Origin: Eledone cirrhosa
Taxonomy: Eukaryota
Direction: 5' to 3'
Length of the DNA: 64,000 bases
Assembly (NCBI GenBank): GCA_964016885.1
Contig: OZ024743.1
Location: forward strand, 150,846,001-150,910,000
The notes beneath the pieces were generated by a model. The model had not been told where the DNA came from, ran no database searches, and saw only the letters and a list, made by a program, of their open reading frames with translations. The position numbers and the translations under genes were made by a program. Of the stretch, positions 4,594 to 63,402 are shown one piece after another. How positions within the stretch are numbered: the stretch's first letter is position 1; every line of letters starts with the position of its first letter.

Positions 4594-4918
4594 ACTCAAC
4601 ATATAGAGAGAAGTACACAAAGTGATATGTGTTTAATCATATGGGATCAACAACCACCAGAGTGACAAACATATTACCTACGGAAGGAATGGTGAATACA
4701 AATCAATAAAAGGAATATATTAAAGTGTACTAACCATCTGATTATAACAATAACAGGTGTATTGTTATAATCGGATGGTTAGTACACTTTGATATATTCT
4801 TTTTATTGATTTGTATTCACCATTCCTTCCGTAGGTACTACGTTTGTCACTCTGGTGGTTGTTGATCCCATATGATTAAACACATATCTCATTGTGTACT
4901 TCTCTCTATATGTTGAGT
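4594..4918. repeat. Near-perfect palindrome, ~159-bp arms with a 7-nt loop (4753-4759)
   Basis: actcaacatatagagagaagtacacaa...attataacaata ACAGGTG tattgttataat...ttgtgtacttctctctatatgttgagt. Confidence 0.9.
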
Positions 4919-22866: not shown

Positions 22867-25428
22867 CAGGATTCACGACAAGCAGTAGCTAACCCCCAAG
22901 TTCGATGATTTTGAGATCTACACATCTCTTTGTCAGCTAGGAGGTTGAGGAGGAGTTGCTGTTCTGTTTCAAAAAAACTTGGATCTCAAAGTACAGACGA
23001 TTCACTTGGACTCGGAGGGCAGCTGTGGGGTCCTGGACGTGAATGGTAGTGAAGGTGGAGCTTTCAGACTGGTGGCCTTATATGCCCTGACTGGGACATC
23101 GTGACCAGAGTTCTTCAAGCGTCTGGAGCCATTCCTGGGAATGTCTCATTCCTTAGTGTTAGCGGGGGACTGAAATGGCATCTTAGACACACGTCTACTG
23201 CAAGAGGCAGCAGAACGGAAGGATTCCCAGTTCTGTAGGCAGAGGCGTAGTAACGCTGATCAGGAAGGATGAGAACAAGATGGATGAGATAAGCAATTTC
23301 AGGCCCATAACTCTGCTCAACACAGAGTTAAAGATTTTGGCCAAGGTGTTATCAACGAGGCTAGCGTTTGTCGTCGAGAACCTAGTAGGGGAAGCGCAAA
23401 CATGTGCAATCCTGACCAGGTCCATACACAACAACCTCCACTTCATACGATACATCATAGAGAGGGTAGGGTGTAAACCTGGCTTTGGTGGGGCTCTGAT
23501 CAATTTAGATCAGTCTAAGACATTTGATAGGGTCAACCATCAATACTTGGAAGCAGTCCTCACGGCGGCAGGCTTCGGTCCCGTCTTCAGAGGCTGGATC
23601 GCTGCCATGCACACCAGCATCTGTTCGACAGTCAAGGTGAATGGCTACCTATCGGAGCCATTCCAAATCATGTGTTCCATCTGTCAGGGATGCCCTCTCT
23701 CCTCCATTTTGTATGTACTGACTCTCGAGCCATTACTGTGGAAGTTGGAGCTGTTGCAGGGCATCTCGACTGAACCAGGACTGCGGAAAGCAACGTCAGC
23801 CTATGCCAACAACATAATCTTAATGGTGTCGAAAACCTCGGACATTAGGGTAATCGGCAACCTATTACAGGAATACAAAACGTTGACAGGAGCAAGACTA
23901 AACCCAAACAAGTCTGTCGGTTTGCAACTTGGCACATGGAGAGGCAAACCCATGCCTTCCGACAGTGTCATTGGATACTGTACGGAAGGACCGGTGAAAT
24001 TGCTCGAGGTCTGGTTTGGTCCAGACCTCCCGGTGGACAAAAACTGGAACGAGGTCACGGCGAAGGTGTTTGGACTCACCCAAAAGTGGGCTGAGTGCAA
24101 ACTCTCCTTGAAAGGTCGAGTGGAGGTGGTGAACAATTACATAGCGTCCGTCATCTAATACCACTTGAGAGTCATGCCTTGTCCTCACGAACACCTCACC
24201 AAAATGGAACGCCTACTCTTCAAGTTCCTCTGGAAGAAACAGGCTCCATTGGTGAGGAGATCCATCTGCTGTCAACACACTTCTAACGGAGGGCTGGGCA
24301 TGCCTTGATGATGCACAAACACGCACTGAGGCTATGCCATCTCCAGGTATTCCTGACCAGCAAACCGGTGTGGCTGTCGTTTGTGAGACGAGCTCTTCTA
24401 CAACTCGTCTCACTAACAGAGCTGCAGCACTGGGTTAAGCGAAGACCGAAAATGGGTGCCTGCAACCTCGAGTGCCTTCAGGCTCTCACAGCCCTCTACC
24501 AAGCAGAAACGGCAATCAGCGGAGACTCCACTTCGACATTCTATAGGGGATTAGTGGAGGATAAGTGCGACAACGTTCTTGGGGAAACTCTAGGCATCGA
24601 GGAAGACGAACTGACCAGTCTGTTCGGGAGGACTTTCTGTCCAGGGCCTATGGATAACTTCCAGAGGGCTCTGGCCTGGCAGTGCTACCAAGGAACTTTA
24701 CCAGTTCAAGACAAAATCTACAGGCATGGCCGCTGTGGCAGAGATCCTGCCAAAAGAACCTGTCCAAGATGCGAGCAGGATATCGAAACCGTTCTGCACG
24801 CAATTGTTCAATGCCCAGGGGTGACCGACCTGTGGAATTATGTCAAACAGCTACTGTCACGTGTGGGACGCATCCAGTTATCAGCCGAATCCATCATGAG
24901 GATCACCCCGCCGCCTTCATTTAAGAATGAAGGCCAGGTGGTTTTCCTCTGTCTGGTGGCTATGGTGAAAGAGGTAATATGGTGGATGGGGTTAAAAGGA
25001 CTGAGGGCAAACACCTTTCTCTCCGGACAATAACTCATCCCCTTCTTTAAGTACCACTTCAGAAGGAAGGTGGGAGTGAAGAGAGAGGTGCTATACCCCA
25101 GTAAATTTGCTGAAAGGTGGGTGAATGTGGCGAAAATGGCCTGAGTGAATGGGCCTTCTCTGTATATAAACCTGTAGGTTGAGGAAGATAAACAGAGGAA
25201 AGACAGGAACATCTACAAAACGTGTTCCTGGTGTTGAGGGTTGTTCTATCCACGGGGTGTAAAACAACCCTGCAGTAACGTTCCTCCCTATTGGGGATTT
25301 CAATTGTTATTTTATTATATATTGTTTATTGTTATTTATTAATGTTAAAGTTATTTTTATGTAAAACCCCCGCCATCACGTCTTGTAATGTCCCATTTTT
25401 GTATGCCCCTGTGGCAAATAAAGCAAGA
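22867..25428 (+). mobile_element. Tx1-clade LINE, 5'-truncated and internally deleted, inserted in a (TCTA)n tract, 13-bp TSD
   Basis: NFRPITLLNTELKILAK, LDQSKTFDRVNH, CQGCPLS, AYANNI, C-terminal CPRC..ETVLHAIVQCP; AATAAA at ~25417; TSD tatctatttttct at 22854-22866 and 25429-25441. Confidence 0.88.
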
Positions 25429-28456: not shown

Positions 28457-30160
28457 ACTTTTCATTGTATGCCAACTACAGGAGAAGTACCTAGCTAAAA
28501 GTAAACCCCTATACTTAGCTTTTGTTGACTTGGAGAAAGCCTTTGACAGAGTCCCCCGTTCCATTATCTGGTGGGCTCTTAGAAAACTAGGTGTTGATGA
28601 ATGGCTTGTGAGAGCTATACAAGCCATGTATAAAGAAACAGTTAGCAAGGTTAGAATTAACAACGAATATAGTGAAGAGTTTAGCGTAAAAGTTGGTGTT
28701 CATCAGTTGGTGTTCTTAGCCCCCTACTAGTTATTATTGCCCTTCAGGCTATAACAGTGGAGTTCAAGACCGGCTGCCCATGGGAACTCCTATATGCAGA
28801 TGATCTAACGCTCATAGCTCATAGCTCATAGCTGAATCAATGGCTGAACTAGAGAAGATATTCCAAACATGGAAGCATGGCCTAGAATCAAAAGACCTTA
28901 AAATTAACCTGTCTAAGACTAAAGTTCTAGTTTGTAGGAAGGAAAATAGGGCACCGGTCCCATCCGGGAAATGGCCATGCTCAGTGTGTAGGAAAGGAGG
29001 AGGCAGAAACTCCATTTTATGTCCCAAATGCAAAGTATGGGTGCATAAAAGATGTAGTGGGATCACTGGTAAGCTAACTAAGAATATAGATTTTATATGT
29101 GGCCGGTGCTCTGGTGCAATAAGTAGCAGCAAGTGCCCACAGAATACTAGCTCATTCCATTGCACAGATGGTTCTATAGGAATAGTGGCCACCTTCCGTT
29201 ACTTGGGTGACAAAATCAGCAATGGCGGAGGGTGCTCTGAAAGTACAGTATCTAGAGTCAGAACTGGATGGAAAAAGTTCAGAGAGCTTATACCACTATT
29301 AGCCGCTAAAGGGTTCTCTCTAAAAATGAAAGGCAGGCTGTATGATGCCTGCATACGAACAGCAATGTTACATGGCAGTGAGACCTGGGCATTGTGTGCA
29401 GAGGATATATGCAGACTGGAGAGGAACGAAGCTTGCATGCTCCGCTGGATGTGTAATAGTAATATATGTGAACGGCAAAGCATAAACGAACTAAGGGAAA
29501 AATTAGAAATAAGAGGGATCAGATGTTGTTTACTCGAGAGAAGACTACGTTGGTACGGTCACGTGATGCGCATGAAAGACGACAGCTGTATAAAAAAGTG
29601 CAGGGCAATAAAAATAGACGGTTGTCATGGAGTAGGCAGACCCAGAAAAACCTGGGATGACTTGATAAATTCCGACCTCACACACTTACACCTCTCCAAG
29701 GCAATGTCACTGGACCGACATATTTGGCGCTACACAGTAATACAGAAGACCCGCCTTACCTAAGTACAAAGTGAAACTTACTACAGTCAGTAGGCACCTC
29801 TAACCAAAATACACCCCCGTCCCACTAGCCCCACCCCATCCACACCACCCCTTTCAATGTAAAGTTATGTTGGTACCACAACATCCAGTCCGAAACAAAT
29901 GAGGTCGTGTAGGTGTCACGACAAAAAAAACACACAGTCCCCGCTGTAATGTGGCCGTGTAGGTAGCACGGTAAAAACCTCCCAGTCCACACTGTAAACG
30001 TGGTTGGAGTTAGGAAGGGCAGCCAGCCGTAGAAAACCCGCCAGACAGTCCTATGCGAGCAAGACAACCACTCTTGCCTCAGGTGGGAAAACTCCCGTCC
30101 AAACCCATGCAAGCGTGGAAGATGGACGTTAAACGATGATGATGATGATGATGATGATGA
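28457..30160 (+). mobile_element. RTE-clade LINE, 5'-truncated, RT with PHD-like insert, 3' UTR and (GAT)n tail
   Basis: LYLAFVDLEKAFDRVPR, YADDL, ORF 28840-29763 ...LRWYGHVMRM..GRPRKTW. Confidence 0.9.
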
Positions 30161-32787: not shown

Positions 32788-33111
32788 CTAAAATAATCAA
32801 TATCGGTCAGTGTTATACATAAATAGATATTTCCAGAAATAAATATTTAACAATACATATATACATTGTGTGTGTGTAGCCTCTGCACACCCTCTGTACC
32901 CTACTATCGACGCCACCCCATCTATGGCTCAACTAACCACTCGACTCCCGGGAATGAATATGACCACAGCTAGTAAACAAGGACCCACACCCCACCCTCC
33001 CGCACCAAAATTAGACTTATCGTCCCCTGCTTTTGCTCTTTACTCTCTTTACTCTTTGTTCTTGAATGTTTGGTTGGTAGAGTCCATAACACCAATCAAA
33101 CCCCTTTTATA

Positions 33112-33156
33112 GCTCTGACGAATCCTACGGTTACGTAAGGAAGAAACATTGTAAGC
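33112..33156 (+). ncRNA. Minimal type-I hammerhead ribozyme (5' pLTR)
   Basis: gct CTGACGA a tcctacg-gtta-cgtaagga a GAAA cattg TA agc; predicted cleavage after GUA 33153. Confidence 0.8.
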
Positions 33157-33379
33157 CAATAAAAATCTTTTGATGTTGTAGACGCTCTTGTGTTCTTTAT
33201 CATATATACGGCTCTGCTCCAAAGCATAGGGCTAATTATTATGCTGCCAAAACCTTAATGGGACACGGGTATACAATACCTAACTCCTATTAACCTAAGT
33301 ATTTCTACGGCTCCCCCCGGTTGAGCTAAATCCTTATAACCTGTCCACCTTGTGTGTATGATTATAATTGATTGGCAGC

Positions 33380-35907
33380 ATGCTAACTAAAGACTACCTA
33401 CCTATATCACTCAAGAACATCCCAACCCCATCCAGGACTACTTATGAGAAATTACTGATAGCTAGTGTCAACTCCTTCGTTAAGCGTATTAGATGGCGCA
33501 CTTTCCACTTCGATAAGAGAAATAAGAAATCAACCACGGTGTCCCCCAATAATAAATTCGGTTTTAAAACCTATAGGAGCCCGCCCCATAACTCCATGCT
33601 AGATGGATTTGAGAATGACCTCCTATCACTAGTAAGGAATATTAAGTTTAAAAAACCCCATGGGAATAGCAACAAATTCCGGATGAAACTGGAAACCTTA
33701 ACGATAAAAGAGATATCCTGGTCACCTCGGATAAAACCAGAAATATTTATAGCTTAAATTATGATACGTATCGCAGGTTTATATACAATGAATTAAATAG
33801 AAACTATAATAAGACAACAAGCGCAAACCTAGATGAAATTAATAAGGAAGCATGCGCCATAGTGGATAAACTAGGCCTGGAAAAGTATACCCAACCATAT
33901 ACCCCTAGGCAACCCAGGTTAACCCTTAAAGACCATAAGGCTGACTTCATTAGTAAACCCTCTGTTAGATTAATTAGCCCATCGAAGTCAGATATAGGGA
34001 TTATCAGTAAGAAAATTTTAGACGGTGTTATACCTACCATCAGGAGGAAAATAAATCTAGAGCTATGGGAAAATACGGAAGAGGTTTTGAAATGGTTCTC
34101 AAGCCTTAGCAACCATAAATCCCTTAAATTTATACAATTCGACATCGATGCGTACTACACCTCAATCTCCCCCATACTCCTTAATAAAGCCCTAATCATG
34201 GCCATGCAGAAAAGTGACCTCACTAGGTCTCAAATTGATGTCATTCTTGCGGCCCGGAAAACGATAATCACATTTGAGGACGAATTGTGGACCCGCAAGA
34301 ATACGCCCAATAACTTCGACATCACAATGGGATCTAGTGACTCTGCACAAGTAACGGACCTGGTGGGATTGTACCTCTTAAAGGAGTTACATGAGACATT
34401 ACCGCACTTGAAGGGCGGCTTATATCGTGATGACGCCCTCCTCACTCTCGAGTATAAAAAGTGCAATATAGAAAGAACTAGGAAACAGTTACGTAGGTTC
34501 TTTAAAACCTTTAATCTAAGTATTACCATAGATGCAAATGACAAAACAGTAAACTTCCTAGACGCCACCCTTGACCTAGAAACTAAAACATTTGCACCCT
34601 ACCATAAACCGAATGATAGACTAACATATGTAAACGCCAGCTCCAACCACCCCAAATCAGTCCTAACCGCTATTCCCAGGGGGGTCTCTAATAGAATTAG
34701 CAGACTGTCCTGTAATGAGAGTATCTTCAACTCCAATGCAGAGTATTATGACAAGGCCCTAGCAGAATCTGGTTACGGGAATAGATTATCATATATACAT
34801 AAGGACTCCCAAACCATGAGTGTGAAACCTACCAACATAATCACACATAGTATGGCCACAAAGCCTAACCAACTTAGAGGCAAGAATAATAGTAAGAACC
34901 CTAATGGCGGTAACCCAGCTAAATGTAAACCACGTAGAGACAATACTAGAGTCCATCACCACAACTCTAAAACAGTAAATGATCATGCCATGAATATAAA
35001 CCATCCGGGCTTAAGCAAAACAGACAACGCCACTAACGTTAATAACGGAACCCTACAAAATAGTACGCACAGTAACGAGACTCACCCGACAGATAAGAAA
35101 AATAGAAGAAGGAAAAACATGTATTTTAACCCACCTTTTAACTCTGAGGTCCTCACTAACCTCCCCAGAGTATTCTTCTCATTATTAGAAAAAAACTTCC
35201 CACCAGGCAATAGATATCGCAACATAATTAACAAAAACGTGATTAAATTATCCTATTCGACCACACCTAACCTCGCATCACACCTAGCACGCACGAACAT
35301 TAGGAAAACTAGGGAAGGTTTCGAAGCAATTAAAATGGCAGTTAACCACCAGCAACCGACTACACTGGAAAATGGGCAACATAATAGCATCACTGAGCCA
35401 TCTAATGATATAGAGGTACCTAGTGATAATGCTAGTAACCAAAGTTCGGGAGGTACGCTAACTGATCGAACCCACAGTTGCAATTGTAGGCGGAGTAGTA
35501 ATTGTCCCCTAAGGGGGGATTGCCTCATGAAAAACATCGTATATGCATGTGACGTAACCACACACAACTCTACCAAAACATATATAGGATCAACGTCTAA
35601 TACATTTAAAACTAGATTTAACGCGCATATGTACACATTTAGACACGATAGACATAAGAATGCCACCTCACTGGCGGGATACATCTCCTTTTTAAAAAAT
35701 AATAGTACCCCATACAAACTTTTTTGGAGGAAGCTTATTAGATCCACGCCATACCGACCGCAGAGCGGGAGTTGTGACCTGTGTTTACTGGAATGCCATG
35801 CCATAATACACTCTAAATTGAACCTGCTTAACAGGAAATCGGAAATTTTCTCCTCTTGCCAACACAAAATCCTGAGTTCCTTCTTCTATTTTAAACCTAG
35901 CACATAG
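33380..35907 (+). pseudogene. PLE RT + C-terminal GIY-YIG endonuclease; one frameshift at ~33670-33700
   Basis: SLKNIPTP..RIRWR..FGFKT (N-term), DKTRNIY, FIQFDIDAYYTSI, FDITMGSSD, GLYRDDAL, YFNPPF, CNCRRSSNCPLRGDC, IVY..YIGST..FKTRF..H, CDLCLLE, LLNRKSE..SCQH. Confidence 0.92.
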
Positions 35908-36226: not shown

Positions 36227-38001
36227 TGTATACATGTGTATTATATTGTGTGTATGTGTATATGTGATATGTATGTGTATATATATATGTATGTGTGTGT
36301 GTATGATATGTATATATGTGTGTATGTATGTATATTTTTTTTGTAGAAGTCTTCTCTATATGTGGTGTTTGGCATGAATTCCTCCTATAATACTCTTCTT
36401 TGAGAGGAGCACGATATGTAGAGTAACACATATGTATTGTCGCAGTTGAAACTGAGAACCACCACTCCTCCTGCTGGCCCAAATGTTTACTGAGGACCAG
36501 AACACCATTCTCCACAATATAAGAGAGGAATGCGCTTGCCGGACTATGGATGACCATAACATCACATTCCAAGGTAATGGCAAAACACAGTGAATGCTAA
36601 ACACGACCAGAACACCACAACATGCACATCGGAGCAACAGAGATATAATATCAATAAGCGAATCGATTGAATTTTTTTAGTTGAAATACATATAAATATG
36701 TGTCTGTGTGTATCGGACACACGTACACATAAAGAAACTGCTGACCTAAATGTACCTGTCATGCCTGTCTGAATTCCTAAGAGAATTTTCGGTCAGTTAC
36801 TATCTTGACCGATTACCCTCACAATTACTACGTAGCGGTTCTTGCATGTGACTGCTGGACTCGGATGAAACGAAGACGAAGAATTTCCTTGCGTACCGTT
36901 TTGTACCACAGATGCGATCTCACTCTGCCTCGTTAATGTTCAATCGACACCAAAGTTCTACGTTCGGGGCAATAGAATTGAATCCAACCACCGACAACAT
37001 AGTTGGATGACCGATAATCACACCAAACCGGAGTACTGTGATCCTTGTGATTTCGAGATATACAACCACTGACACGATTACGAAGACCAGAAAACCATAC
37101 TCCATAATATTGAACCAAGTGATTGATTTGTGCGACCAAAATAACACCACACACATATTGAACTAGGAATATTGGATCCTCCGTCAATGTCTGGGTGAGC
37201 AAAAATAGATTTCTATCTGCATTGGAATTTACGAACTTGTGCATCTGCTGTGGTGTCAAAAACAAACGCACGTGACCGCACAGATGAACAATGGACTACG
37301 CCACCTGGGTTGAACCTGCAAGTGAATTGAAGGATGTGTAACTCTGATATACAGGTTATTTATTATTAAGATGTATAAACTTGACATAACTATTATCATC
37401 TTATATTCTCTCAACTAATCACATTTGATTATATTTCTCTATCCCGTTTTCTCCCCCCATATTTATAATATTTTTATTTGAAAAAATCGGTTTTTTTTAC
37501 ATTGTATCTTTCCCTTTCTAATACTTGCTTATATTTCTTTATATATTCTCTATATATTTTTTTATCCTTATTCTTATTTTCACTTTTATCCTCCTTTATA
37601 TTTTACCTTATTCTTACTTTTATACCTTATTATAGTGTAATCTTCCCCATGCCTTATTATACATTATTAATTATAGATTATTATTATTACTCTTTTTCCA
37701 TTTCTAATTACCTCATGTACTTTCTCCTCCGTTATATATATATTGTATGCCCTGTGTGTGTGTGTGTAGCCTCTGCACACCCTCTGCACCCTACTATCGA
37801 CGCCACCCCATCTATGGCTCAACTAACCACTCGACTCCCGGGAATGAATATGACCACAGCTAGTAAACAAGGATCCACACCCCACCCTCCCGCACCAAAA
37901 TTAGACTTATCGTCCCCTGCTTTTGCTCTTTACTCTCTTTACTCTTTGTTCTTGAATGTTTGGTTGGTAGAGTCCATAACACCAATCAAACCCCTTTTAT
38001 A

Positions 38002-38046
38002 GCTCTGACGAATCCTACGGTTGCGTAAGGAAGAAACATTGTAAGC
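38002..38046 (+). ncRNA. Minimal type-I hammerhead ribozyme (3' pLTR)
   Basis: Same as 33112-33156 except loop II gttg; predicted cleavage after 38043. Confidence 0.8.
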
Positions 38047-38094
38047 CAATAAAAAATCTTTTGATGTTGTAGACGCTCTTGTGTTCTTTATCAT

Positions 38095-38221
38095 ATGTAT
38101 ACATATATACAACTCACAAAATTTGGAGTTGTATACATAAATAGATATTTCCAGAAATGAATATTTAACAATACATATATACATATGTATACATATATAC
38201 AACTCACAAAATTTGGAGTTG
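38095..38221 (+). repeat. 90-bp tandem duplication whose first copy (32814-32866 + 38095-38131) is split by the PLE
   Basis: The intact unit at 38132-38221 matches the two flanks joined. Confidence 0.8.
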
Positions 38222-38621
38222 CATACATGAACAATTCCAGTGTCAACAAACAGATAATTGGCAGGAGGTGAAACTTGCCAAAATATATTATTTTTCCGTT
38301 TATGAGAAAGTTTGAGAGTTCAGCAAATTTTGACTCTAGACAAAATAGTATAAATAATAGGGCATATAAGCCTGACCCTCGTTTAACTAGGGAAAAAATT
38401 AACATCAACACATGCAGGGCTCAAACTCATGCTTGCCAGGCTGATCAGTGTAGCTATTCAACAAAAGAGAAGCTATGTAGTTGATATGAGCATCTAAATC
38501 TCTTGAAGGTAGTGCCTCAGCATGGCTGCAGTCTCATTACTGAAACCATTTAAAGAATGAAAGAATCTTCATTAACATCGTCCTTTTACATCCACTTTTC
38601 CATATTATGTGTGTGCATGCA

Positions 38622-38622
38622 A

Positions 38623-38682
<60 letters not shown>

Positions 38683-38882
38683 TGTAGTGGTGTTTGTATG
38701 TATATACGCATATATGGATGTGTATGTATTTGTATATATGCGTATATGTAAGTGTGTATGTGTGTGTGAGTATATATCTATGTCTATGTATGAGTATGTA
38801 TGTGTGTGTATGTATGTGTGTGTGTATGTATGCGTGTATATATGTATGTGTATGTATATGTATGTATGTATATATATGTATA

Positions 38883-38921
<39 letters not shown>

Positions 38922-39035
38922 GTATATATATATATATTTATTATATGTGTGTGTGTGTGTATATATATCTTTATATATGTGTATGTGTATGTGTGTGTAT
39001 GTGTGTGTGTGTATATGTGTATGTGTGTGTATATG

Positions 39036-39115
<80 letters not shown>

Positions 39116-39116
39116 C

Positions 39117-39180
<64 letters not shown>

Positions 39181-39190
39181 ATGTATATGC

Positions 39191-39236
<46 letters not shown>

Positions 39237-39345
39237 GTGGGTATGTATGTGTTTGTGTGTATATATATGAGTGTGTTTTTATATATATATATGTGTGTAG
39301 ATGTGTCTGTGTATATACATATATATATATATATGTATATATGTG

Positions 39346-39392
<47 letters not shown>

Positions 39393-39473
39393 ATATATAT
39401 ATGTATATATGTGTGTATATGCGTGTATATATATATATATATATGTATATGTATATGTGTGTGTGTGTGTGTG

Positions 39474-39518
<45 letters not shown>
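38622..39518. repeat. ~0.9-kb compound (TA)n/(TG)n microsatellite
   Basis: Seen directly. Confidence 0.95.
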
Positions 39519-39521
<3 letters not shown>

Positions 39522-40115
39522 CTTGATATATTTCTTTTTTCTTTTTCTTTTCTTTTTATTTCTAAGTTTATAGATACATTTATAAATAGGTAGTCTGCTG
39601 ACACCGTTGAATACTGACCTCTCCCCCCCCCCACCTAATTTTTGTATCTGGATCTAGATGTGTGTGGCAGTGTTTATGTGCGTGCATTAATGTCCATATG
39701 CTTATGATAATAGTATATACACATATATATGTGTGTGGGGGTGTGTGTGTGTATGTATGTTCGTAGTTATGTGTATGTTTATGCGTATACGCGCGTGTGT
39801 GTGTGAGTGTACGAATATGTGTGAGTATATGAATGTGTGTATATATTTATTTTATAATTATGTATCTATACGCATTTTATCTGTAGATTAAAAACTTACA
39901 GAGACATTAGCCTTGAATTTTTGTATTTACATACATCTTTTTGTCATGCGTATGCATGTGAACACATATCTTTATGCATATCTGTGAACGAAATTAATTA
40001 CATGTATATACACACACCTAACTGCATAAACTTTTTGTATTTTCATTGGTCAATTTGAATTCTGTTCCCAAACAGACCTGAAATTTTGAATTGTTGTTAT
40101 TATCAATAAATATAT

Positions 40116-40270
40116 TTCATTATTTCTGAAGACGGCATATATATATGTTTGGTATGTATATTTAATTTTGATAGTTTGTATAATTTTGTATAATTTTGTA
40201 CATAGATCTGTTGAATATGCATGCCAATTCTAACACATATATATCCTAGAAACGATCGTTAAATAATGAA
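40116..40270 (+). ncRNA. Type-I hammerhead with a very long domain II (orphan pLTR, ~39540-40330)
   Basis: ttcattattt CTGAAGA [~116 nt] GAAA cgatcg TT aaataatgaa: perfect 10-bp stem I and palindromic stem III. Confidence 0.8.
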
Positions 40271-40324
40271 CTTTTTTTGTTTAATATAAGGAACTGTTTC
40301 ATTGTTTTATTCATTATTTTTTTA

Positions 40325-40410
<86 letters not shown>

Positions 40411-40423
40411 GTTGGTGTTATTA

Positions 40424-40542
40424 TCCAGCCGTAGAAAACCCGCCAGACAGTCCTATACGATCAAGACAACCAATCTTGCCTCAAGTGGGAAAATTCCCGT
40501 CCAAACCCATGCAAGCGTGGAAGATGGACGTTAAACGATGAT

Positions 40543-40545
<3 letters not shown>
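40424..40545 (+). mobile_element. Isolated RTE 3' tail
   Basis: Near-identical to 30023-30145 (ccagccgtagaaaacccgccagacag...ggacgttaaacgatgatg). Confidence 0.8.
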
Positions 40546-40574
<29 letters not shown>

Positions 40575-40615
40575 AAATAAGAGAGACGGTTTTATTCATA
40601 CATCCATATTTTATT

Positions 40616-40689
40616 TATTCGTTATACATATTTCAAAGATGTAAGGTAGTTATATAATAACTGCCTTACGCACTCTCTTCAGACAGACA
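40616..40689 (-). ncRNA. Type-I hammerhead in an orphan pLTR fragment (~40571-40845)
   Basis: Minus strand: tgtctgt CTGAAGA gagtgc gtaaggcagtta-ttata-taactaccttac atcttt GAAA tatgta TA acgaata. Confidence 0.7.
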
Positions 40690-40958
40690 TAGAAACGAGA
40701 TGTAAAATTCCATTGATATGTTACCAGTCGGACGTGTTATTCACCTCGCCAATCAATACACATGTGTGGCATGACTTGTCCCATAATGTGACAACCTATC
40801 TAACCTATGCTATTGTGGAAAACGGGCATTAAACTATGATGTTGCTCTCTCTATATATATATACATATATATATATATAGGTATAGATTTATTACGGTTC
40901 TTATATATTTATCCTTATCGAGCCCTCTTTGGATTTTAGTCTTCAAATTTATTATTAT

Positions 40959-41014
<56 letters not shown>

Positions 41015-41063
41015 TATTCAAAATATTAACAAATGAAGATATTCACATAATCAAAATATATGC

Positions 41064-41126
41064 TTTATTATATATATTTCGAAGGTACTGTGTTGTTTTT
41101 TTTTCAGTACGTCCTCGTCAGATAAA
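41064..41126 (-). ncRNA. Type-I hammerhead (left inverted pLTR)
   Basis: Reverse complement of 42911-42970 with a longer A-run in loop II. Confidence 0.8.
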
Positions 41127-41230
41127 ACATGATTTGATATATGACATACCTCTACGGCCTTGATATTTCAATTTCTGTATTGGCGGTGATTTATTTCATC
41201 AAATCTCAACATTTATATACCACAAATAAT

Positions 41231-41432
41231 TGTTTCTACTTTAGGCACAAAGCCAGCAATTATCCAGTGCATTACTGGTACTTTATTTTATCGACCTCGT
41301 AAGGATGAAAGGCAAAGTCAACCTCGGCGGGATTTGAACTCAGATTGTAAAGGGACGTAACTATGTTCGAAAGCATGGCGTCCGACCCTCTACCGATACT
41401 GCCAATCCACCGCCTTATACCAATCCACCGCC
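41231..41432 (-). mobile_element. tRNA-derived SINE nested in the pLTR, 17-bp TSD
   Basis: TSD tatataccacaaataat at 41214-41230 and 41435-41451; absent from the right arm. Confidence 0.88.
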
Positions 41433-42910
41433 TATATATACCACAAATAATAATATGATAAACTTAAAGAAGAAAAGGACGTGGAGCGCATTAGAGATAT
41501 AAGAAGGCAAGAAAAAAAGAAGAAAAAATAAATAAATACATACATAAATATTTAAATGAATAAAAATAAATAAAAGGATGGATGAATATAGGAAGAAGAA
41601 AGGAGAAATAACGACAAAAGAGAGGGAACATAAAATATATGTTTGGATAGATAGAAAAAAACGTTGTTTTCAAATATTAGGTCAATTGAGGCAACCAATC
41701 AATTACCATAAACCATTGAATATCTCTTGTATTTGATTATGGTTAAGCTAATTATGCTTATATATTATATCAAAATTAATCAATATACATTACTTTTTAT
41801 AGCCATCACGTAATTAGTTTAATTAGAAATTTATATAATTTAATTTAACTCATTATAGATTATAATTTTTGGTTTAGGTAATATATTCCTTAAGTATTTT
41901 GTTACAACTTTTTAAAAAATGTTATCCTTAAAGCAAATTTAAATAATTATTAAACATGCATTTAAAATATATATTAAAATACATCCATATATCACCATCA
42001 GTATATATAATATATTAAGATCATTTTTTTATCCGAATTATTTTATTTAAATAGGATATTCTCTTTATAAAATCATTTCTATTCTTAATTATCATATAAT
42101 TACAGGATTAAATTGCAGTTATATTTACTCTCAAAAGTTTTATATTTACTTCTGTAATTACATATTATTATAGTTTCCTTTTAAAGATACTCTTATATTA
42201 TTAAACTACATAATTCATGTCAAATATAATTTAGTAAGCTATTCAAATAGAATAAAAATATTTACGAAGAATGTAAACAAAAGGAAGATAACTCATTCAC
42301 CATATGTGAACATTTAAACCATGTATCTACTCTGAAATCTAGTGATATTTCTAAACCATAAATCAACAATTGTCTAGTTAAATATTGAACTGTCCTAATC
42401 AAAACATAGGATACAGAGACTCTTAATGAAATTATTCTAATAGATAAAACATCAATAAATTATTACCACAGTAAGGCAAAAATTATATATATATTTTTTT
42501 TAATTATTAATTGTCAATATTTAATCGAAACTTGTACAATGCCTAGAATGTTTTACGGAATTTATGTTGACAGCTGCTGAATAATTCATTTTTCTTGTTA
42601 ATTAAATTGTCATAATTTGTAATTATCAATAGAGTCTCAAGATTGCAAAGATTGCAATTTAGCGAAATGGATGCATTCCGATAGTAATTGGCATTCTTTA
42701 ACCGAGTCCAAGAAATGGAGTATTTAATATTCTTGTCCTTCAAAGACCATATTAATTATCTCTAATACGCTCCACGTCGTTTTCTTCTTTAAGTTTATCA
42801 TATTATTATTTGTGGTATATAAATGTTGAGATTTGATGAAATAAATAACAGCCAATACAGGAATTGAAATATCATGACCGTAGAGGTATGTCATATATCA
42901 AATCCTATAT

Positions 42911-42970
42911 TTTATCTGACGAGGACGTACTGAAAAAACAACACAGTACCTTCGAAATATATATAATAAA
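42911..42970 (+). ncRNA. Type-I hammerhead (right inverted pLTR)
   Basis: tttat CTGACGA ggac gtactg-aaaaaacaaca-cagtac cttc GAAA tatata TA ataaa; predicted cleavage after 42965. Confidence 0.82.
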
Positions 42971-43176
42971 GCATATATTTTGATTATGTGAACATCTTCA
43001 TTAGTTAATATTTTGAAAAATATTAAAAACTCCAGGAAAATTTCTGTTGAGTGCTTTTAATCTATTGTAAAACTGTATTAATTGAGTAATCAATGAACCA
43101 TATTAATCTTTGGTTATATATATGTATATATATCAAAATGAAAATCCGAAGGCAAGGTAAAATTCCGATCATTTAA

Positions 43177-43250
43177 TCACGACACATGTTTCAATAAGAG
43201 ATAGATCGATTGTGAAGCCATGATCGATTATCACTGATCTCATCAAGTGA
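43177..43250 (-). ncRNA. Hammerhead-like motif with UUGAUGA core (left arm)
   Basis: Minus strand: tcac TTGATGA gatcagtgata atcgat...atcgat c tatctcttatt GAAA catgtg TC gtga. Confidence 0.6.
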
Positions 43251-46200
43251 AATTGAATTGTCTTCAAATTCTTGATATGAGGGAGAAAAATAACGATGTT
43301 CTCTCACAGAATTCATTCCCTCATATGAAGACACACCAGTCATATACACGGCGACTGCTATTAACTTCAGTTGGGTCATAAAAGTTTTCAGATTTCTATC
43401 GCTACAAAAGACGCTGGACATCAATCAAATCTGTAGGGATACAGTCAGTCACAGTTATTGTGAGTGGGTACACACACATTCCACACCCACATACACCGGC
43501 TCGAGGTCAAAGAAAAATATATACATATATATACACAGGTCAACACAGTGTTAAACCTGTAGAGTTAGTGTGGGTGGGTACACACCCACTCTCACACACA
43601 CCGAAGCGATGTCCGAGAAAAAACAAATATAAGAAACGAAATAAATAAATATAAAAATGTACCAACACAGCACTCACCGAAAGTTAGTTCACGAAACAAC
43701 AGAAGCTATATTGGTCAAATCTCAATTTGACGATGTAAATTGGAAATATTGGGTTAACCAACGCCCTATACACACACACACACACAAGCAAGTAAGTTCA
43801 GTTCAGTGTTCTGCTATACGTGTATAGATTGAATTGTAACATCCATATCTTCAAGTGTATGTTATGGTATATACACATCCGAATCGTCCAAAAATGGGTA
43901 TGTCCGGGTATATACACATCCATGTGAAGAGCAAGCAATCAGCTCATATCGAACTCAGTATGTACCGCTGTCTCATTGAGAATCCGAGTCACCAAATCCG
44001 TACGTGCAAGCAACCGCAATGTAGGCCAGCAAAGGGCTCCGTGTAGGGTTGGGTATTGGGTAAATGCGTCCGTAAGTGCGATTTCCCGTCATATGGGCCG
44101 ATGAGCTTTTAAGATAGTTGTTTAAGTGGTGGAGGTGTGTTATCCAACACAGAAGGTGAAGTAAAAAAAAAAGCACAGGATAGTAAAATCCAAAGGATGG
44201 GTGTAGGCCCATTAATGGTGTGTCAGTATTATTGTTCAATCCGTAACAGTGAGTCCTCCGTGGTTAGATGATCACGGATCAAAACCTAGTGTAGTGTTCA
44301 GTCGGTAGGAACGTGACATTCGTAATTGTGGGAACTCAATGTCTAAAGGAAACGGGTACTGTGTGTATAGTTATGTATAGAGAGCGTAATCGGTCCTAAT
44401 TAAATGTGTAATACGACTAGCTATATCCCAACTGAGAGAACTCAATGGTTAGGGTATCTTAAAGTAAAGGTAGGTTCGCGTAATTGGTCATGTCCATTGT
44501 GTGCAATCAATTACTAACTAGGTATACTAAGTGTGTAATCAATCTAATTATTTACTAGCTAGGTATTCTAAAAAAGTGCACTCAGCTGTGAGAACCCCGT
44601 GGAAACAGGCCGAGTATCGTTTGTAAGTGCGCAAACAATCTTAGCCGTCTAATTACCTGAGTGTGTGACTGTCTGTTTATTGAGAGAACTCTATGGCTAA
44701 AGTAGAGAGGGGGGAGTTAGTAGTAGGTTACCTTCCAAAAATCCTGCGGAAGGTTTTCGAGGATCTATGTTGGCAGTTGCTGAAAAAATCTGCTCTCCTA
44801 TTAATTAATAGGGGGCTGCCTCTAATAATATTAAAAGTTTCAGCTATACATAAATTGCAAACGCCAGTGCTGCCGTTATAAGGTTGGTCTGAGCAAACTA
44901 TGGACCAGGATAAGGAGTACTCTATATTCTGGTGTCTAAGCTTCCAGACAAATTCAGAAAGTGCCGTGCTATTTTTTAATCTAATCTATTAAAGGTATGG
45001 CGGTGATTATACCATCTATCCTTAAATTCCGTGGCAGTTGCCCCAACATACCTAAAGGTTCTATGAGGAGTGGAGACCTTACAGTCGTAGACTATGTTTT
45101 TGGTAAGGCATTTCCCAACCATGGGGCCGGCGGCGGTGCTTCTGCATTTACATTTTTTGCTATCTACCTGGGTAGTTCCAGATGGACCACGGTACCTTTG
45201 GGGTCGGGTCTCAGTTCCCGTCTGCTCTATAGGTAAATTCCCTGGAGTTGGGGAGACTCGACTCGCCTCACGTATATGAGTCAGTTCCTCAATAGAGCTG
45301 CCATTGTTCCTGCCATGCCTAATTCCCTCATTGGCTGTCCTAAGTCTACTATAATTCATCTTAGCTATATTCTGAGCTATGTTACTAGTTGTGGAGTAGG
45401 ACAGCTTGATGGTATTTTTATTGAATATTTTATAATATCTGTGCGATCTAGGGAAGCATTTGTCTAAGGCCCTAAAGAAAAGCTTAGCTATACTAGTGGT
45501 CAGGCCAGTGGAGTAAGGGGGATTATACCACAGGTCTTTTCTGATGCCTTTTATTCTTACTAGAATTACCTGTCTCCCTAGTAGTTATTGGTCTATTGTA
45601 ACTGGAAATTGCCTGTGGGCCGATGGTGTCCTGGGGTGTCACGATTGTGTTCTGAATCGTCCCATGTCTCCAGGGCAGTGTATCCCCCGTGCGGCCATTG
45701 GGATTACCCTCGATAGCCGGGGTTGTATCCACTATGCGTCTGCTACGCTTGTCCCCATTCCCCTTACTCGACCCTCGTTCCATACTGCATTCAACGGTAG
45801 TTTTAACGGTTCCACAATTAAGGTTACCATTAGAGTTTCCGCTGGCGTTACGTTGCTCAGACCCCGTGTTAGTACCTGGGTGGTTGTTTCTATTGGTACC
45901 AACAGCATTGGGACTAGGCGGCAATACAACATGAAGACTATATGAATCCTCCCTTGTATCCCGCCTGCTGTTAACTAGAGTGTCACTATTTAGGCCTAAG
46001 CTATTGCAGGCAATGTTGCTTCTACTATTTAATGGACGTTTGAATGAGATTCCCTCGCTATGCCCCACGCGTTCCAGGGAGCTATTATAGTAATTCGCGA
46101 TATTATTAAAGGTATCTTCATTGGAAGATAGTCCTGAAATTCATAATAAAAAAATGTAACTCCAGAAGCACCGCCACCTGCCACATGGCTGGGAAATGCC

Positions 46201-48053
46201 TTACCAAAAACATAGTCTACGACTGTAAGGTCTCCACTCCTCATAGAACCTTTAGGTATGTTGGGGCAACTGCCACAGAATTTAAGGATAGATGGTATAA
46301 TCACCGCCATACCTTTAATAGATTAGATTAAAAAATAGCACGGCACTTTCTGAATTTGTCTGGAAGCTTAAACACCAGAATATAGAGCACTCCTTATCCT
46401 GGTCCATAGTTTGCTCAGACCAACCTTATAACGGCAGCACTGGCGTTTGCAATTTATGTATAGCTGAAACTTTTAATATTATTAGAGGCGGCCCCCTATT
46501 AATTAATAGGAGAGCATATTTTTTCAGCAACTGCCAACATAGATCCTCGAAAACCTTCCGCAGGATTTTTGGAAGGTAACCTACTACTAACTCCTCCCTC
46601 TCTACTTTAGCCATAGAGTTCTCTCAATAAACAGACATTCACACACTCAGGTAGTTAGACGGCTAAGATTGTTTGCGCACTTACAAACGATACTCAGCCT
46701 GTTTCCACGGGGTTCTCACAGCTGAATGCACTTTTTTAGAATACCTAGCTAGTAAATAATTAGATTGATTACACATTTAGTATACCTAGTTAGTAATTGA
46801 TTGCACACTCGGACATGACCAATCACGCGAACCTACCTTTACTTTAAGATACCCTAACCATTGAGTTCTCTCAGTTGGGATATAGCTAGTCGTATTACAC
46901 ATTTTGTTAGGACCGATTACGCTCTCTATACATAACTATACACACAGTACCCGTTTCCTTTAGACATTGAGTTCCCACAATTATGACTGTCACGTTCCTA
47001 CCGACTGAACACTACACTAGGTTTTGATCCGTGATCATCTAACCATGGAGGACTCACTGTTACGGATTGAACAATAATACTGTCACACCATTAATGGGCC
47101 TACACACATCCTTTGGATTTTACTATCCTGTGCTTTTTTTTACTTCACGTTCTGTGTTGGATAACACCCCCCACCACTTAAACAACTATCTTAAAAGCTC
47201 ATCGGCCCATATGACGGGAAATCGCACTTACGGACGCATTTACCCAATACCCAACCCTACACGGAACCCTTTGCTGCCCTACATTGCGGTTGCTTGCACG
47301 CATGGATTTGGTGACTCGGATTCTCAATGGGACAGCGATACATACTGAGTTCGATATGAGCTGAATTGCTTGCTCTTCACATGGATGTGTATATACCAGG
47401 ACATACCCATTTTGGGACGATTCGGATGTGTATATACCATAACATACACTTGAAGATATGGATGTTACAATTCAATCTATACACGTATAGTAGAACACTG
47501 AACTGAACTTACTTGCTTGTGTGTGTGTGTGTATAGGGCGTTGGTTAACCCAATATTTCCAATTTACATCGTCAAATTGAGATTTGACCAATATAGCTTC
47601 TGTTGTTTTGTGAACTAACTTTCGGTGAGTGCTGTGTTGGTACATTTTTATATTTATTTATTTGTTTTCTTATATTTGTTTTTTCTCGGACATCGCTTCG
47701 GTGTGTGTGAGAGTGGGTGCGTACCCACCCACACTAACTCTACAGGTTTAACACTGTGTTGACCTGTGTATATATCGGTATATATTTTTTCTTTGACCTC
47801 GAGCCGGTGTATGTGGGTGTGGAATGTGTGTGTACCCACTCACATTAACTGTGACTGACTGTATCCCTACAGATTTGATTGATGTCCAGCGTCTTTTGTA
47901 GCGATAGAAATCTGAAAACTTTTATGACCTCAACTGAAGTTAATAGCAGTCGCCGTGTATATGACTGGTGTGTCTTCATATGAGGGAATGAATTATGTGA
48001 GAGAACATCGTTATTTTTCTCCCTTATATCAAGAATTTGAAGACAATTCATTT

Positions 48054-48127
48054 TCACTTGATGAGATCAGTGATAATCGATCATGGCTTCACAATCGATC
48101 TATGTCTTATTGAAACATGTGTCGTGA
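48054..48127 (+). ncRNA. Hammerhead-like motif with UUGAUGA core (right arm)
   Basis: tcac TTGATGA ... GAAA catgtg TC gtga; predicted cleavage after GUC 48123. Confidence 0.6.
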
Positions 48128-48299
48128 TTAAATGATTGGAATTTTACCTTGCCTTCGGATTTTCATTTTGATAATTATACTCCGTTTTACCTCATCTAGC
48201 TATTCCCTTGAATGGAATTACAGATATACAAAAGCGTGGAGAACTTAATATTTCTAACATAAAGTTATTGGACCATTTTACACAACCAATAATGCACCC

Positions 48300-48361
<62 letters not shown>

Positions 48362-48396: not shown

Positions 48397-48790
48397 TGAA
48401 AAAAAAGGAAAAGAATGACTTCACTTGTAGTTCTAAACAATTTGATTTAATTTTATAATATTATAATATTATGAGTTGGTAGATCTATTAAGTTCTTTGT
48501 TAACTTCGGTGGGAAGATTTTTAAAGATTCCTGGTTAACTTTCCTGGAGAACTTTCTCGCATTCATCGGTGGCGATTGTCAAACTGAGATCAGGTTGTGT
48601 TGAAATGTTTGACACAATGACGAATGCGAGAAAGTTCTCCTGGAAAGTTAACCAGGAATCTTTAAAAATCTTCCCACCTAAGTTAACAAAGAACTTACTA
48701 GATCTACCAACTCATAATATTATAATATTATAAAATTAAATCAAATTGTTTAGAACTACAAGTGAAGTCATTCTTTTCCTTTTTTTTTCA
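48397..48790. repeat. Near-perfect foldback, ~171-bp arms (48397-48567 / 48619-48790), 51-nt structured loop
   Basis: tgaaaaaaaaggaaaagaatgacttcac...ctcgcattcatc / gacgaatgcgag...gtgaagtcattcttttcctttttttttca. Confidence 0.92.
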
Positions 48791-61369: not shown

Positions 61370-63402
61370 ATCATCATCATCATTATCATCACCGTTTTAC
61401 GTCTGTTCTTCCACGCGAGCATGAGTTAGACGGCTTGTCCTGTTGTGGGCAGTGTCTGGTTGGCTGACCATGCCTTGCTCATACAGGAACTGATTTGGCT
61501 TGATTTCTACAGCTGGATGCCCTTCCTAACACCAACCTCATTTACAGTGAGTGCTGGGTGCTTTTTCGTGGCGCCTACACGTCCACTTTACAGTGTGGGC
61601 TGGGTGCTTTTTTGCCGTGGCACCTCCACGACCACATTGCAGTGGGAGGGTGTGGGGGCATATTGTCTATATGCTTCAGCTTGTACCCATGGGAGGTCGG
61701 GTACTCTGTATTACTGCGTGACACCAGAGGTCACAGTCGTGTGTCATCGCCTTTGAGAGGTGTAATTGGGTAAGGTCGGCTTTTATCACCTCATCCCAGG
61801 TCATCTTGGGTCTCCCCACTCCGCGGTTTCCATCGACTTCTAGTGCTCTGCACCTTTTTATGCAGCTGTCATCCTTCATACGCATCACATGTCCATACCA
61901 ATGCAACCGCCTCTCCTGCACACAGCATTTGATTCCTCTTATGCTCAGTCTCTCTCTCAATTCATTTATGCTTTGCCGTTCGCGTATATTACTATTACAC
62001 ATCCATCGGAGCATGCAGGCTTTGTTTCTCTCTAATCTACATAAGTCTTCCGCCTTCAGTGCCCAGGTCTCACTGCCATGTAACATTGCTGTTCGGATAC
62101 ACGCATCATACAGTCTGCCTTTCATTTTGAGGGAGAAGCCTTTTGCAGCTAGCAGTGGCAGTAGTTCCCTGAACTTCTTCCATCCCGTTCTTACCCTAGT
62201 TATTGTACTTTCTGAACACCCACCTCCGCTGCTAATTCGGTCACCTGGGTAGCAGAAGCTGTCTACTGTCTCTACAGAGCCCTCCCAGAGATTGGTGGTA
62301 CTTGTTTCCTGTGGCTGTTTGCTGCTTGCTGTCCCAGTACAGCTGCTGCATGTGAAGCCTACATTCTTAATTAAGCTTCCTGAGATCCCGCTACATCTCT
62401 TGTGTACCCATTGTTTGCATTTGGGGTAGAGAATGGAGTTCCTACCTACACCTTTCCTACATACTGAGCAAGGCCATTTCCCTGAAGAGATCTGGGTTCT
62501 GTTTTCTCGTCTACTTACAAGGACCTTAGTCTTTGTCATGTTGACTTTGAGACCCTTTCTTTCTAGTCCCTGCTTCCAAGTTTGGAATTTCTTCTCTAGT
62601 TCTACCATAGATTCAGCTATAAGTGCGAGGTCATCTGCATACAGGAGTTCCCATGGGCATCCAGTCTCAAACTCCTCCGTTATTGCCTGCAGGACTATGA
62701 TGAACAGGAGAGGGCTAAGAACAGAGCCCTGGTGGACACCAACCTGTACGCTAAATTCCTCGCTATACTCATTGCTAATCCTAACTTTGCTGACTGCTCC
62801 CCTATACATGGCTTGTACCGCTTTCACAAGCCATTCATCTACTCCTAGTTTTCTAAGAGCCCACCAGATTACAGCACGTGGAACTCTGTCAAAGGCTTTC
62901 TTGAGATCGACGAATGCCAGGTAGAGTGGCTCACTTTTAGCTAGGTACTTTTCCTGTAACTGCCTCACAAGGAAGAGGGCATCAGTGGTGCCTCTTCCTG
63001 ATACTAACCCAAATTGCATCTCATCTAGTTTCACCCGGTCCCTAATCAACTGTGCTATAACTCTTTCTCTTACTTTCATGACCTGGTCCATCTATAGTTT
63101 CCTCTATCTAGTGCAACACCTTTACCTTTGTAGCAGTTGACAATGATGCTACTGCACCAATCCTTTGGTATGACACCTTCTAATATTACCTGGTTAACAA
63201 TACGTGTGGTTATAGTGTGACCTACAGACCCAGATGCCTTCAGCATCTCGGCAGCTATACCTGATGGACCGGTTGCCTTCCCCATCTTCATATCCTTGAT
63301 TGCCTCACTTACTACACTGCTGCTGACTTGTACTGCTGGCTCCTCTATAGGGTCTACTTGGGGTAGGGTCTCTTCTTCCCATGCATTCTCCTCATTTATC
63401 AT
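61370..63402 (-). mobile_element. RTE-clade LINE, 5'-truncated; RT largely open (61676-63091, 471 aa)
   Basis: GKATGPSGI, QFGLVSGRGTTDALF, FVDLKKAFDRV, GVHQGSVLSPLLF, LLYADDLAL; 3' UTR shared with SINE 27089; (GAT)n tail. Confidence 0.92.

Follow-up and report, generated by a model that had tools for sequence, protein, structure and literature searches.

What sets the 3′ end of a retroelement that carries a self-cleaving ribozyme close to that end? The question is raised by a 64,000-nt stretch of the Eledone cirrhosa genome (assembly GCA_964016885.1, contig OZ024743.1, positions 150,846,001 to 150,910,000, forward strand; hereafter the window, to which all positions refer), which holds several Penelope-like elements (PLEs) with hammerhead ribozymes near their ends. 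An earlier note on the window proposed a ruler, in which reverse transcriptase (RT) starts at a fixed distance of ~50 nt inside the ribozyme-made 5′ end of the RNA, or past the junction of a circular RNA, and in which this start is coupled to a ribozyme/poly(A) switch. Our analysis supports internal RT starts downstream of the hammerhead, as demonstrated for PAc (Poseidon, Anolis) (PMC11167929, drawn on here in part), but replaces the ruler. The elements have two sharp 3′ ends, each just before one of two copies of a conserved bulged hairpin. Judged from sequence and by analogy, these hairpins are probably binding sites that place the RT start, a candidate role that we favor over a fixed 50-nt distance from the ribozyme.

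A scan for type I hammerhead anatomy bore out all six sites of the earlier note, each with the core and three helices, and added a seventh at 33153. The predicted cuts fall after 33153 and 38043 (plus strand; family A), 40623 (minus; family B), 42965 (plus) and 41069 (minus; family C), and 48123 (plus) and 43181 (minus; family D). An Rfam scan reported none of these hammerheads, only microsatellite noise, and folds of the monomer RNA do not give a full hammerhead. Genomic copies were drawn from 3.0 Gb, in which each family has 385–2381 first-look candidates; for each of families A–D, 30 loci were fetched and the best 40 of 385–1439 candidates were scored. Further families came from 1 Mb of position-picked stretches, 100 kb of which flanks the window; these gave 61 hammerhead rows, and three families were sampled more deeply. 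The family C query contained the spacer, so the C sample is biased to full-spacer copies; queries for the other families stopped at the cut.

In every family the copies stop sharply in (TA)n at either of two 3′ points, a short end (E1) and a tailed end (E2). Because these ends merge into (TA)n, all distances and offsets are intervals and are given as ranges. In the sampled genome copies, E1 lies 48–55 nt after the predicted cut in family A, 48–50 nt in B, 54–58 nt in C and 47–50 nt in D, and the window’s own B copy measures 52–54 nt through a 4-nt duplication. The ~50-nt distances of the earlier note are thus sharp within families A, B and D, whereas family C does not have the 52 nt read for it. 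The distribution of distances is narrow within a family but spans 17–61 nt among the Hydra-clade families of this one genome: 17–20 nt in S, 34–36 in L, 36–38 in K, 43–46 in F, 50–55 in E, 54–56 in G and 57–61 in M. Family P keeps one end sequence while its cut distance ranges from 123 to 171 nt. The positions 43017 and 48173, which had been taken for the ends belonging to the cuts at 42965 and 48123, are not ends; both copies are tailed and run on to ~43114–43116 (+149–151 from the cut) and 48302–48308 (+179–185). In the families at large, E2 lies at about +146 (A), +143 (B), +151 (C) and +185–190 (D). Across the elements studied here, the second end is 64–140 nt beyond E1.

The cut itself leaves little trace among the ends. 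Truncated 5′ ends do not cluster there (10-nt bins around the cut hold 12, 6, 5 and 7), and none of 28 tail-selected family A copies has a 5′ truncation within 14 nt of it. A cut-to-end distance of 48–53 nt is predicted in only four of 36 metagenome relatives, and among 22 Hydra consensi in the supplement of Craig et al. the end falls 30–48 nt after the cut in ten and 63–153 nt after it in 12 (computed from the tables of PMC8557442, with one consensus end checked by eye). A few family B deletion variants (L093, L101, L102, L111 and L113), partly one-armed, were set aside for this comparison. Because the distance varies and 5′ truncations do not accumulate at the cut, a fixed 50-nt ruler, which also overlooked the second end, is not supported; as far as these sequences tell, the ribozyme does not measure the cut-to-E1 spacer.

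The constant anchor is the hairpin. The leader runs in the order hammerhead, spacer, E1, hairpin 1, E2, hairpin 2 and ATG, and its two hairpins are copies of one bulged, 20–30-nt form, GCUC-Y...R-UY-GAGC-ACU; hairpin 2 is present in read-through copies of families A, D, F, H and L. The E1 set comprises 173 copies of 12 families, 159 of them anchorable and 99 with a clean TA junction. Of these 99, 82 are compatible with an end 6 nt before hairpin 1, as is the modal interval of ten of 11 families; the best cut-based distance accounts for 35 copies and four families, and 50 nt for 28 copies. At E2, where 72 TA-junction copies of five families were scored (21 non-TA junctions and ten read-through copies excluded), intervals overlap 4–7 nt before hairpin 2 in 66. 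Family S provides an out-of-sample test, for it was discovered by the hairpin alone and follows the offset rule at both ends. Its hairpins lie at +26 and +104 and its ATG at +191, behind a spacer without AAUAAA; 41 copies end at E1 (with the TA run from +17 in 31) and 21 at E2, 18 were classed as other, and two read through. Moreover, 27 of 29 new family A copies picked by their tail only end at E2 or within 2 nt of it, the other two reading through.

The hairpin also recurs beyond this genome. In a metagenome set of 78 loci with Hydra-type open reading frames (ORFs), from the best 80 of 346, GCTC...GAGCACT starts between +25 and +70 in 31 of 42 distinct hammerhead tails, at a shuffle rate of 0.0008; 21 of the 42 carry two or more motifs, and most motif-less tails are short-ended copies or variants. 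Hairpin-to-hairpin spacing is 55–83 nt in 24 relatives, and an open-frame ATG follows a motif by 7–39 nt. In the 1 Mb of sampled stretches the strict motif is present 39 times, compared with once in the shuffle. Among 72 hairpins whose arms were anchored by the motif, and in which pairs 5–7 were not demanded by the finder, the fifth pair, across the 2-nt bulge, is Watson–Crick in 70 (44 C-G and 26 U-A; shuffle mean 38), and the sixth and seventh pairs form in 48 and 40 (22 and 18 expected by shuffle). The first pair switches from G-C to A-U in four hairpins, and ACU follows the hairpin in 58 of the 72. Rfam returned no match at E ≤ 5 for the hairpin region, 33050–33420.

The two ends are combined in a regular way in inverted insertions. 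We counted 75 outward-facing pairs, with P and Q, the non-Hydra families, included. Both ends could be classed in 61 pairs, and 55 of these joined one E1 to one tailed end, with three E1/E1 and three tail/tail pairs (p 3e-11 against 0.5; the automatic end classes of families Q, I and J are unreliable). In the tail-selected family A set, the visible end of the inverted partner is E1 in eight of eight cases, with one further partner reading through, and 16 of 17 family S pairs (some of them duplicate pairings) are E1 plus E2. In pairs of families A, D and M, a comparison that excludes family C (seven pairs) and L062, the E1 arm is longer than the tailed arm in 15 of 22, by up to 1.2 kb, and either arm can be the longer, so each arm holds sequence that the other lacks. 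Small gaps or microhomology mark the arm junctions. The two arms of one insertion are nearer each other than they are to other copies in 40 of 48 cases, which is consistent with a single template. As a separate observation, many family S copies are tiny fold-backs, and their inversion junction is found repeatedly in the loop of stem II, ~45–55 nt before the cut.

We propose, tentatively and at a little under even odds, that the two hairpins of the leader serve as an RNA landing pad for an RT-endonuclease dimer, with one subunit per hairpin and both target strands primed from one RNA at two fixed sites; a single event of this kind would explain why initiation is internal, why the tail is one-sided and why the ends are inverted. 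The enzyme, probably a dimer as predicted for PAc, would bind both hairpins on one read-through RNA, tandem or circular, and nick both strands of the (TA)n target. Each subunit would begin cDNA just 5′ of its hairpin, by ~6 nt, and both cDNAs would extend upstream through the hammerhead before joining head to head. The outcome would be an inverted insertion with a tail on one side only, the tail being the hairpin-to-hairpin interval, whereas failure of one arm would leave a lone 5′-truncated E1 or E2 copy.

Several observations weigh against this model. First, the best single E2 offset accommodates only 35 of the 72 copies, family A lying mostly at 7–10 nt and family D mostly at 4–5 nt, and fewer indels will in any event accumulate between an end and a nearby anchor than between an end and a distant one. 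Second, 14 of the 75 inverted pairs have an unclassable end and six were E1/E1 or E2/E2. Third, when 20 tailed family A loci were extended to 8 kb, 16 lacked an inverted arm within ~7.5 kb, and twin priming must therefore often be incomplete or absent. Fourth, relatedness among the hairpins is left uncorrected in the covariation counts, and pairs 1–4 were demanded by the finder for most rows. Finally, the non-Hydra families P and Q have two ends yet lack the Hydra hairpin motif, and wobble pairs are too few to tell an RNA fold from a fold of single-stranded DNA.

In an alternative that we consider unlikely, the hairpins or their sequence are recognized on DNA and the endonuclease cuts the cDNA or donor a few bases upstream, making E1 and E2 resolution cuts and not RT starts. 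Wobble pairs do not reveal the folding strand. Craig et al. propose that the tail arises by endonuclease-mediated resolution (PMC8557442), and on plasmid DNA the Drosophila virilis endonuclease required the sequence of the tail (work cited in PMC11167929). Nevertheless, recognition of double-stranded DNA does not need covarying stems with a 2-nt bulge, the private sequence in each arm requires two templated syntheses, and the genomic ends of PAc coincide with RT starts mapped in vitro (PMC11167929). Slightly less likely again, the hairpins could do other work, in translation, packaging or transcription, while the ends are set by AU-rich bases pairing with the nicked (TA)n primer. E1 and E2 do fall in A/T-rich, often TA-like bases, and hairpin 2 lies 7–39 nt before an open-frame ATG in relatives; other A/T-rich stretches of the spacer are, however, seldom used, hairpins 1 and 2 share one offset, which is found again in family S, and PAc begins at a site without target homology (PMC11167929).

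Fold-back self-priming of a single cDNA, which would keep the hairpins as start-setters and dispense with a second target-primed synthesis, seems distinctly improbable. Such self-priming has been inferred from palindromic junctions in bdelloid PLEs (PMC3846280), and here the arms share private variants and palindromic junctions occur, in small number; yet a copy made by fold-back can contain nothing that the tailed first arm lacks, and the tail-less E1 arm so often reaches further 5′ (15 of 22 pairs) that simple fold-back from the tailed arm cannot produce the pair. The ruler is the least credible of the alternatives, for although families A, B and D lie at 47–55 nt and several others at 43–61 nt, AAUAAA is enriched beside the cut and one family L junction starts at the cut on both arms (the fold-back L180:6354, a single case), it is at odds with the distances in S, K, L, M, P and the metagenome relatives, with the second end and with the lack of clustered truncations at the cut, and PAc products are unchanged by ribozyme mutants (PMC11167929).

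To which PLEs does the twin-hairpin leader belong? The frameshifted ORF of family A encodes RT first and then GIY-YIG, at residues 631–667 of 745. The Hydra-clade motifs are present, as IRWR (P0002), SDKT (P0001) and DK(T/S) across the RT alignment, as are the CxCX5C linker (CNCRRSSNC) and, around E and N, CxxC (CDLC) and CxH (CQH), all in P0001, together with a canonical hammerhead near the 3′ end and insertion into (TA)n. The clade is defined by RWR/RWK, DKT, CxCX5C, CxxC, CxH, a C-terminal GIY-YIG, a canonical hammerhead and (TA)n targets (PMC8557442), and we assign the window elements to it by these sequence motifs. The earlier note had called them Naiads, which have an N-terminal GIY-YIG endonuclease and no canonical hammerhead (PMC8557442); the C-terminal endonuclease and the hammerheads rule this out. 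Neptune and Nematis are excluded by the linker, which in those groups is CX2-5CxxC; family P, which has a CX4CxxC linker, is a non-Hydra family. Argonauta hians and Solemya velum supply the closest named protein relatives. In an RT tree of 41 rows, which holds only sequences gathered in this analysis and to which families F and H contribute no usable RT piece, families A, D and E form one clade (support 100/97), so the ends of the families are not independent. Families B and C bear matching endonuclease fragments, and the same hairpin follows all of the ends, which therefore are not the ‘four unrelated-looking ends’ they had been taken for.

A candidate poly(A) signal lies beside the cut in many families. 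A(A/T)TAAA starts at +5 in 31 of 34 genome copies of family A, at 0 in 47 of 48 of family C and at +4 in 34 of 38 of family D; in family B it starts at +4 in 28 of 35, three more having other offsets or ATTAAA. AAUAAA starting between 0 and +13 is enriched, as the earlier note had anticipated, in nine of our 12 families (0.9 expected) and in 18 of 36 metagenome relatives (1.65 expected), and the next interval along the spacer holds one and none, respectively. The spacer after the cut is A-rich and then U-rich, and the hexamer is present in 27 of 48 families and relatives taken together. Families K, L, M and S have no AAUAAA near the cut, K having one 78 nt upstream. In AAUAAA-bearing relatives hairpin 1 lies at a median of +52, versus +43.5 in the others (p 0.0003, not corrected for the tree). 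The presence of AAUAAA changes ten times on the RT tree, and the signal is kept behind differing stem I sequences. It is plausible from the sequences that a poly(A) cassette sets a minimum spacer, and the ~50-nt spacer is probably an inherited, elastic interval in which a poly(A) signal is held in about half of the families.

Ribozyme form varies among the families. Both family D arms share a C3U core change (48058 and 43246), and 30 of 35 D matches in the genome have C. Family S, at first thought to be without a ribozyme, proved to have a hammerhead with a U3-A8 core and a long helix III (seen at L129:5591-8056 and in 70 further copies). Families P and Q are minimal-hammerhead PLEs (L153, L139, L180 and L184), with AATAAA ~70 and ~45 nt before the short end. 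In family M (L259, L272, L274, L276, L277, L279 and L280), a ~530-bp monomer carrying a hammerhead and a GTTC/GAAC variant of hairpin 1 is repeated head to tail; the resulting arrays are retrozyme-like, and most terminate at E1. At L189:8780-9713, also retrozyme-like, 311-bp tandem repeats each contain a canonical hammerhead.

Table 1 Positions of the Penelope-like features in the window
Feature	Positions	Strand	Remarks
Family A upstream pseudo-long terminal repeat (pLTR), a partial tandem copy continuing into the leader	32867–33208	+	99% repeat of 37757–38055; read-through copies
Hammerhead of upstream family A pLTR	33112–33156	+	predicted cut after 33153; AATAAA 33158–33163
E1 site in family A leader, end point of short copies	33201–33208	+	+48 to +55; 16/16 TA-junction copies
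Hairpin 1, family A leader	33211–33235	+	bulged GCUC...GAGC type; GGGC in the window copy is a U-G wobble
E2 site in family A leader, end point of tailed copies	33299–33302	+	+146 to +149
Hairpin 2, family A leader	33310–33327	+	motif
Hydra-clade ORF, RT and C-terminal GIY-YIG	33380–35907	+	frameshift near 33670–33757 splits the ORF
Family A downstream pLTR	37757–38096	+	hammerhead 38002–38046, predicted cut after 38043; AATAAA 38048–38053; E1 end 38092–38096
Family B end	40569–40685	−	hammerhead, predicted cut after 40623; AATAAA; E1 end 40571–40569 into (TA)n
Family C insertion, long arm	41011–42756	−	E1 end 41015–41011; hammerhead 41063–41127; endonuclease fragment 42546–42743
Family C insertion, short tailed arm	42757–43116	+	hammerhead 42910–42971, predicted cut after 42965; hairpin 1 43029–43055; E2 ~43114–43116
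Family D insertion, E1 arm	43131–46140	−	E1 end 43134–43131; hammerhead 43177–43250 with C3U; endonuclease fragments
Family D insertion, tailed arm	46149–48308	+	hammerhead 48054–48127, predicted cut after 48123, C3U; long hairpin 1 48179–48245; E2 48302–48308

The family A element of the window is ~5.2 kb long, including a 2-kb 3′ untranslated region. A 58-bp stretch to its left (32809–32866) recurs to its right within a 90-bp tandem unit (38092–38231), an arrangement that is not a simple target-site duplication. The family D insertion sits in the (TA)n adjoining the family C end, and a high-copy repeat is nested in the long arm of family C near 41213–41420. Other retroelement fragments in the window (28825–29763, 61676–63091, 23187–25033 and 12826–14849) comprise RT with a PHD finger and LINE-like endonuclease/RT pieces, and near-perfect short inverted repeats lie outside the insertions described here at 48399–48787 (169-nt arms) and 4594–4918 (159-nt arms).

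PLEs are the sister group of telomerase, and how they choose an internal start and why their tail is one-sided are open questions (PMC11167929, PMC8557442). A covarying 20–30-nt hairpin that occurs in two copies and, in many families, predicts each end with an error of one or two bases is a candidate for the missing cis element; with it, both questions could be put to the test in an existing assay. The hairpin rule could also guide the annotation of ends in a very abundant group of repeats, and it separates the ribozyme from end formation. If the model is correct, the ~150-nt leader would amount to a portable signal that directs RNA-templated insertion into (TA)n.

Among known systems, the closest in mechanism is PAc, which like the Hydra-clade elements here has two internal end points whose interval is the tail; it has two internal RT starts, depends on RNA lying 3′ of them, extends both strands, is a predicted dimer and does without ribozyme cleavage in vitro (PMC11167929). 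PAc belongs to another clade, however, with its cut at +26 and its starts near +111–118, about 85–92 nt later; it starts inside the ORF in an AC-rich stem-loop, and the parts of PMC11167929 consulted report neither a twin motif nor a pairing of starts with strands. The Hydra clade of Craig et al., which lists an octopus member, has the same motifs, hammerhead and (TA)n targets, and its consensus ends (30–48 and 63–153 nt after the cut) match our E1 and E2, although our tails are 64–140 nt long as against 30–40 there (PMC8557442); the passages and supplement sections of that paper that were consulted describe neither leader hairpins nor an offset rule. The canonical PLE unit of a pLTR, an inverted 5′-truncated copy and an optional tail at one end (PMC3846280, PMC8557442) has the same inverted arms and one-sided tail; the one-of-each ends are counted here and tied to the two hairpins. 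As in the PLE hammerheads of PMC4209133, to judge from the portion drawn on, those here are of type I, with a short and often palindromic helix III, and lie in pLTRs, family S being a U3-A8 core variant; the cut here does not fix the element end, and the circular template modelled in that paper is compatible with these sequences. Internal initiation, one-sided tails and inverted arms were thus already known, whereas the twin-hairpin cis element is apparently undescribed: our literature search found no description of it, nor of AAUAAA beside PLE hammerheads. In the twin priming of L1, an inversion results when the other target strand also primes synthesis on the same RNA. The second start of L1 is variable and its arms are placed differently, whereas the elements described here have fixed starts and both 3′ ends facing outward.

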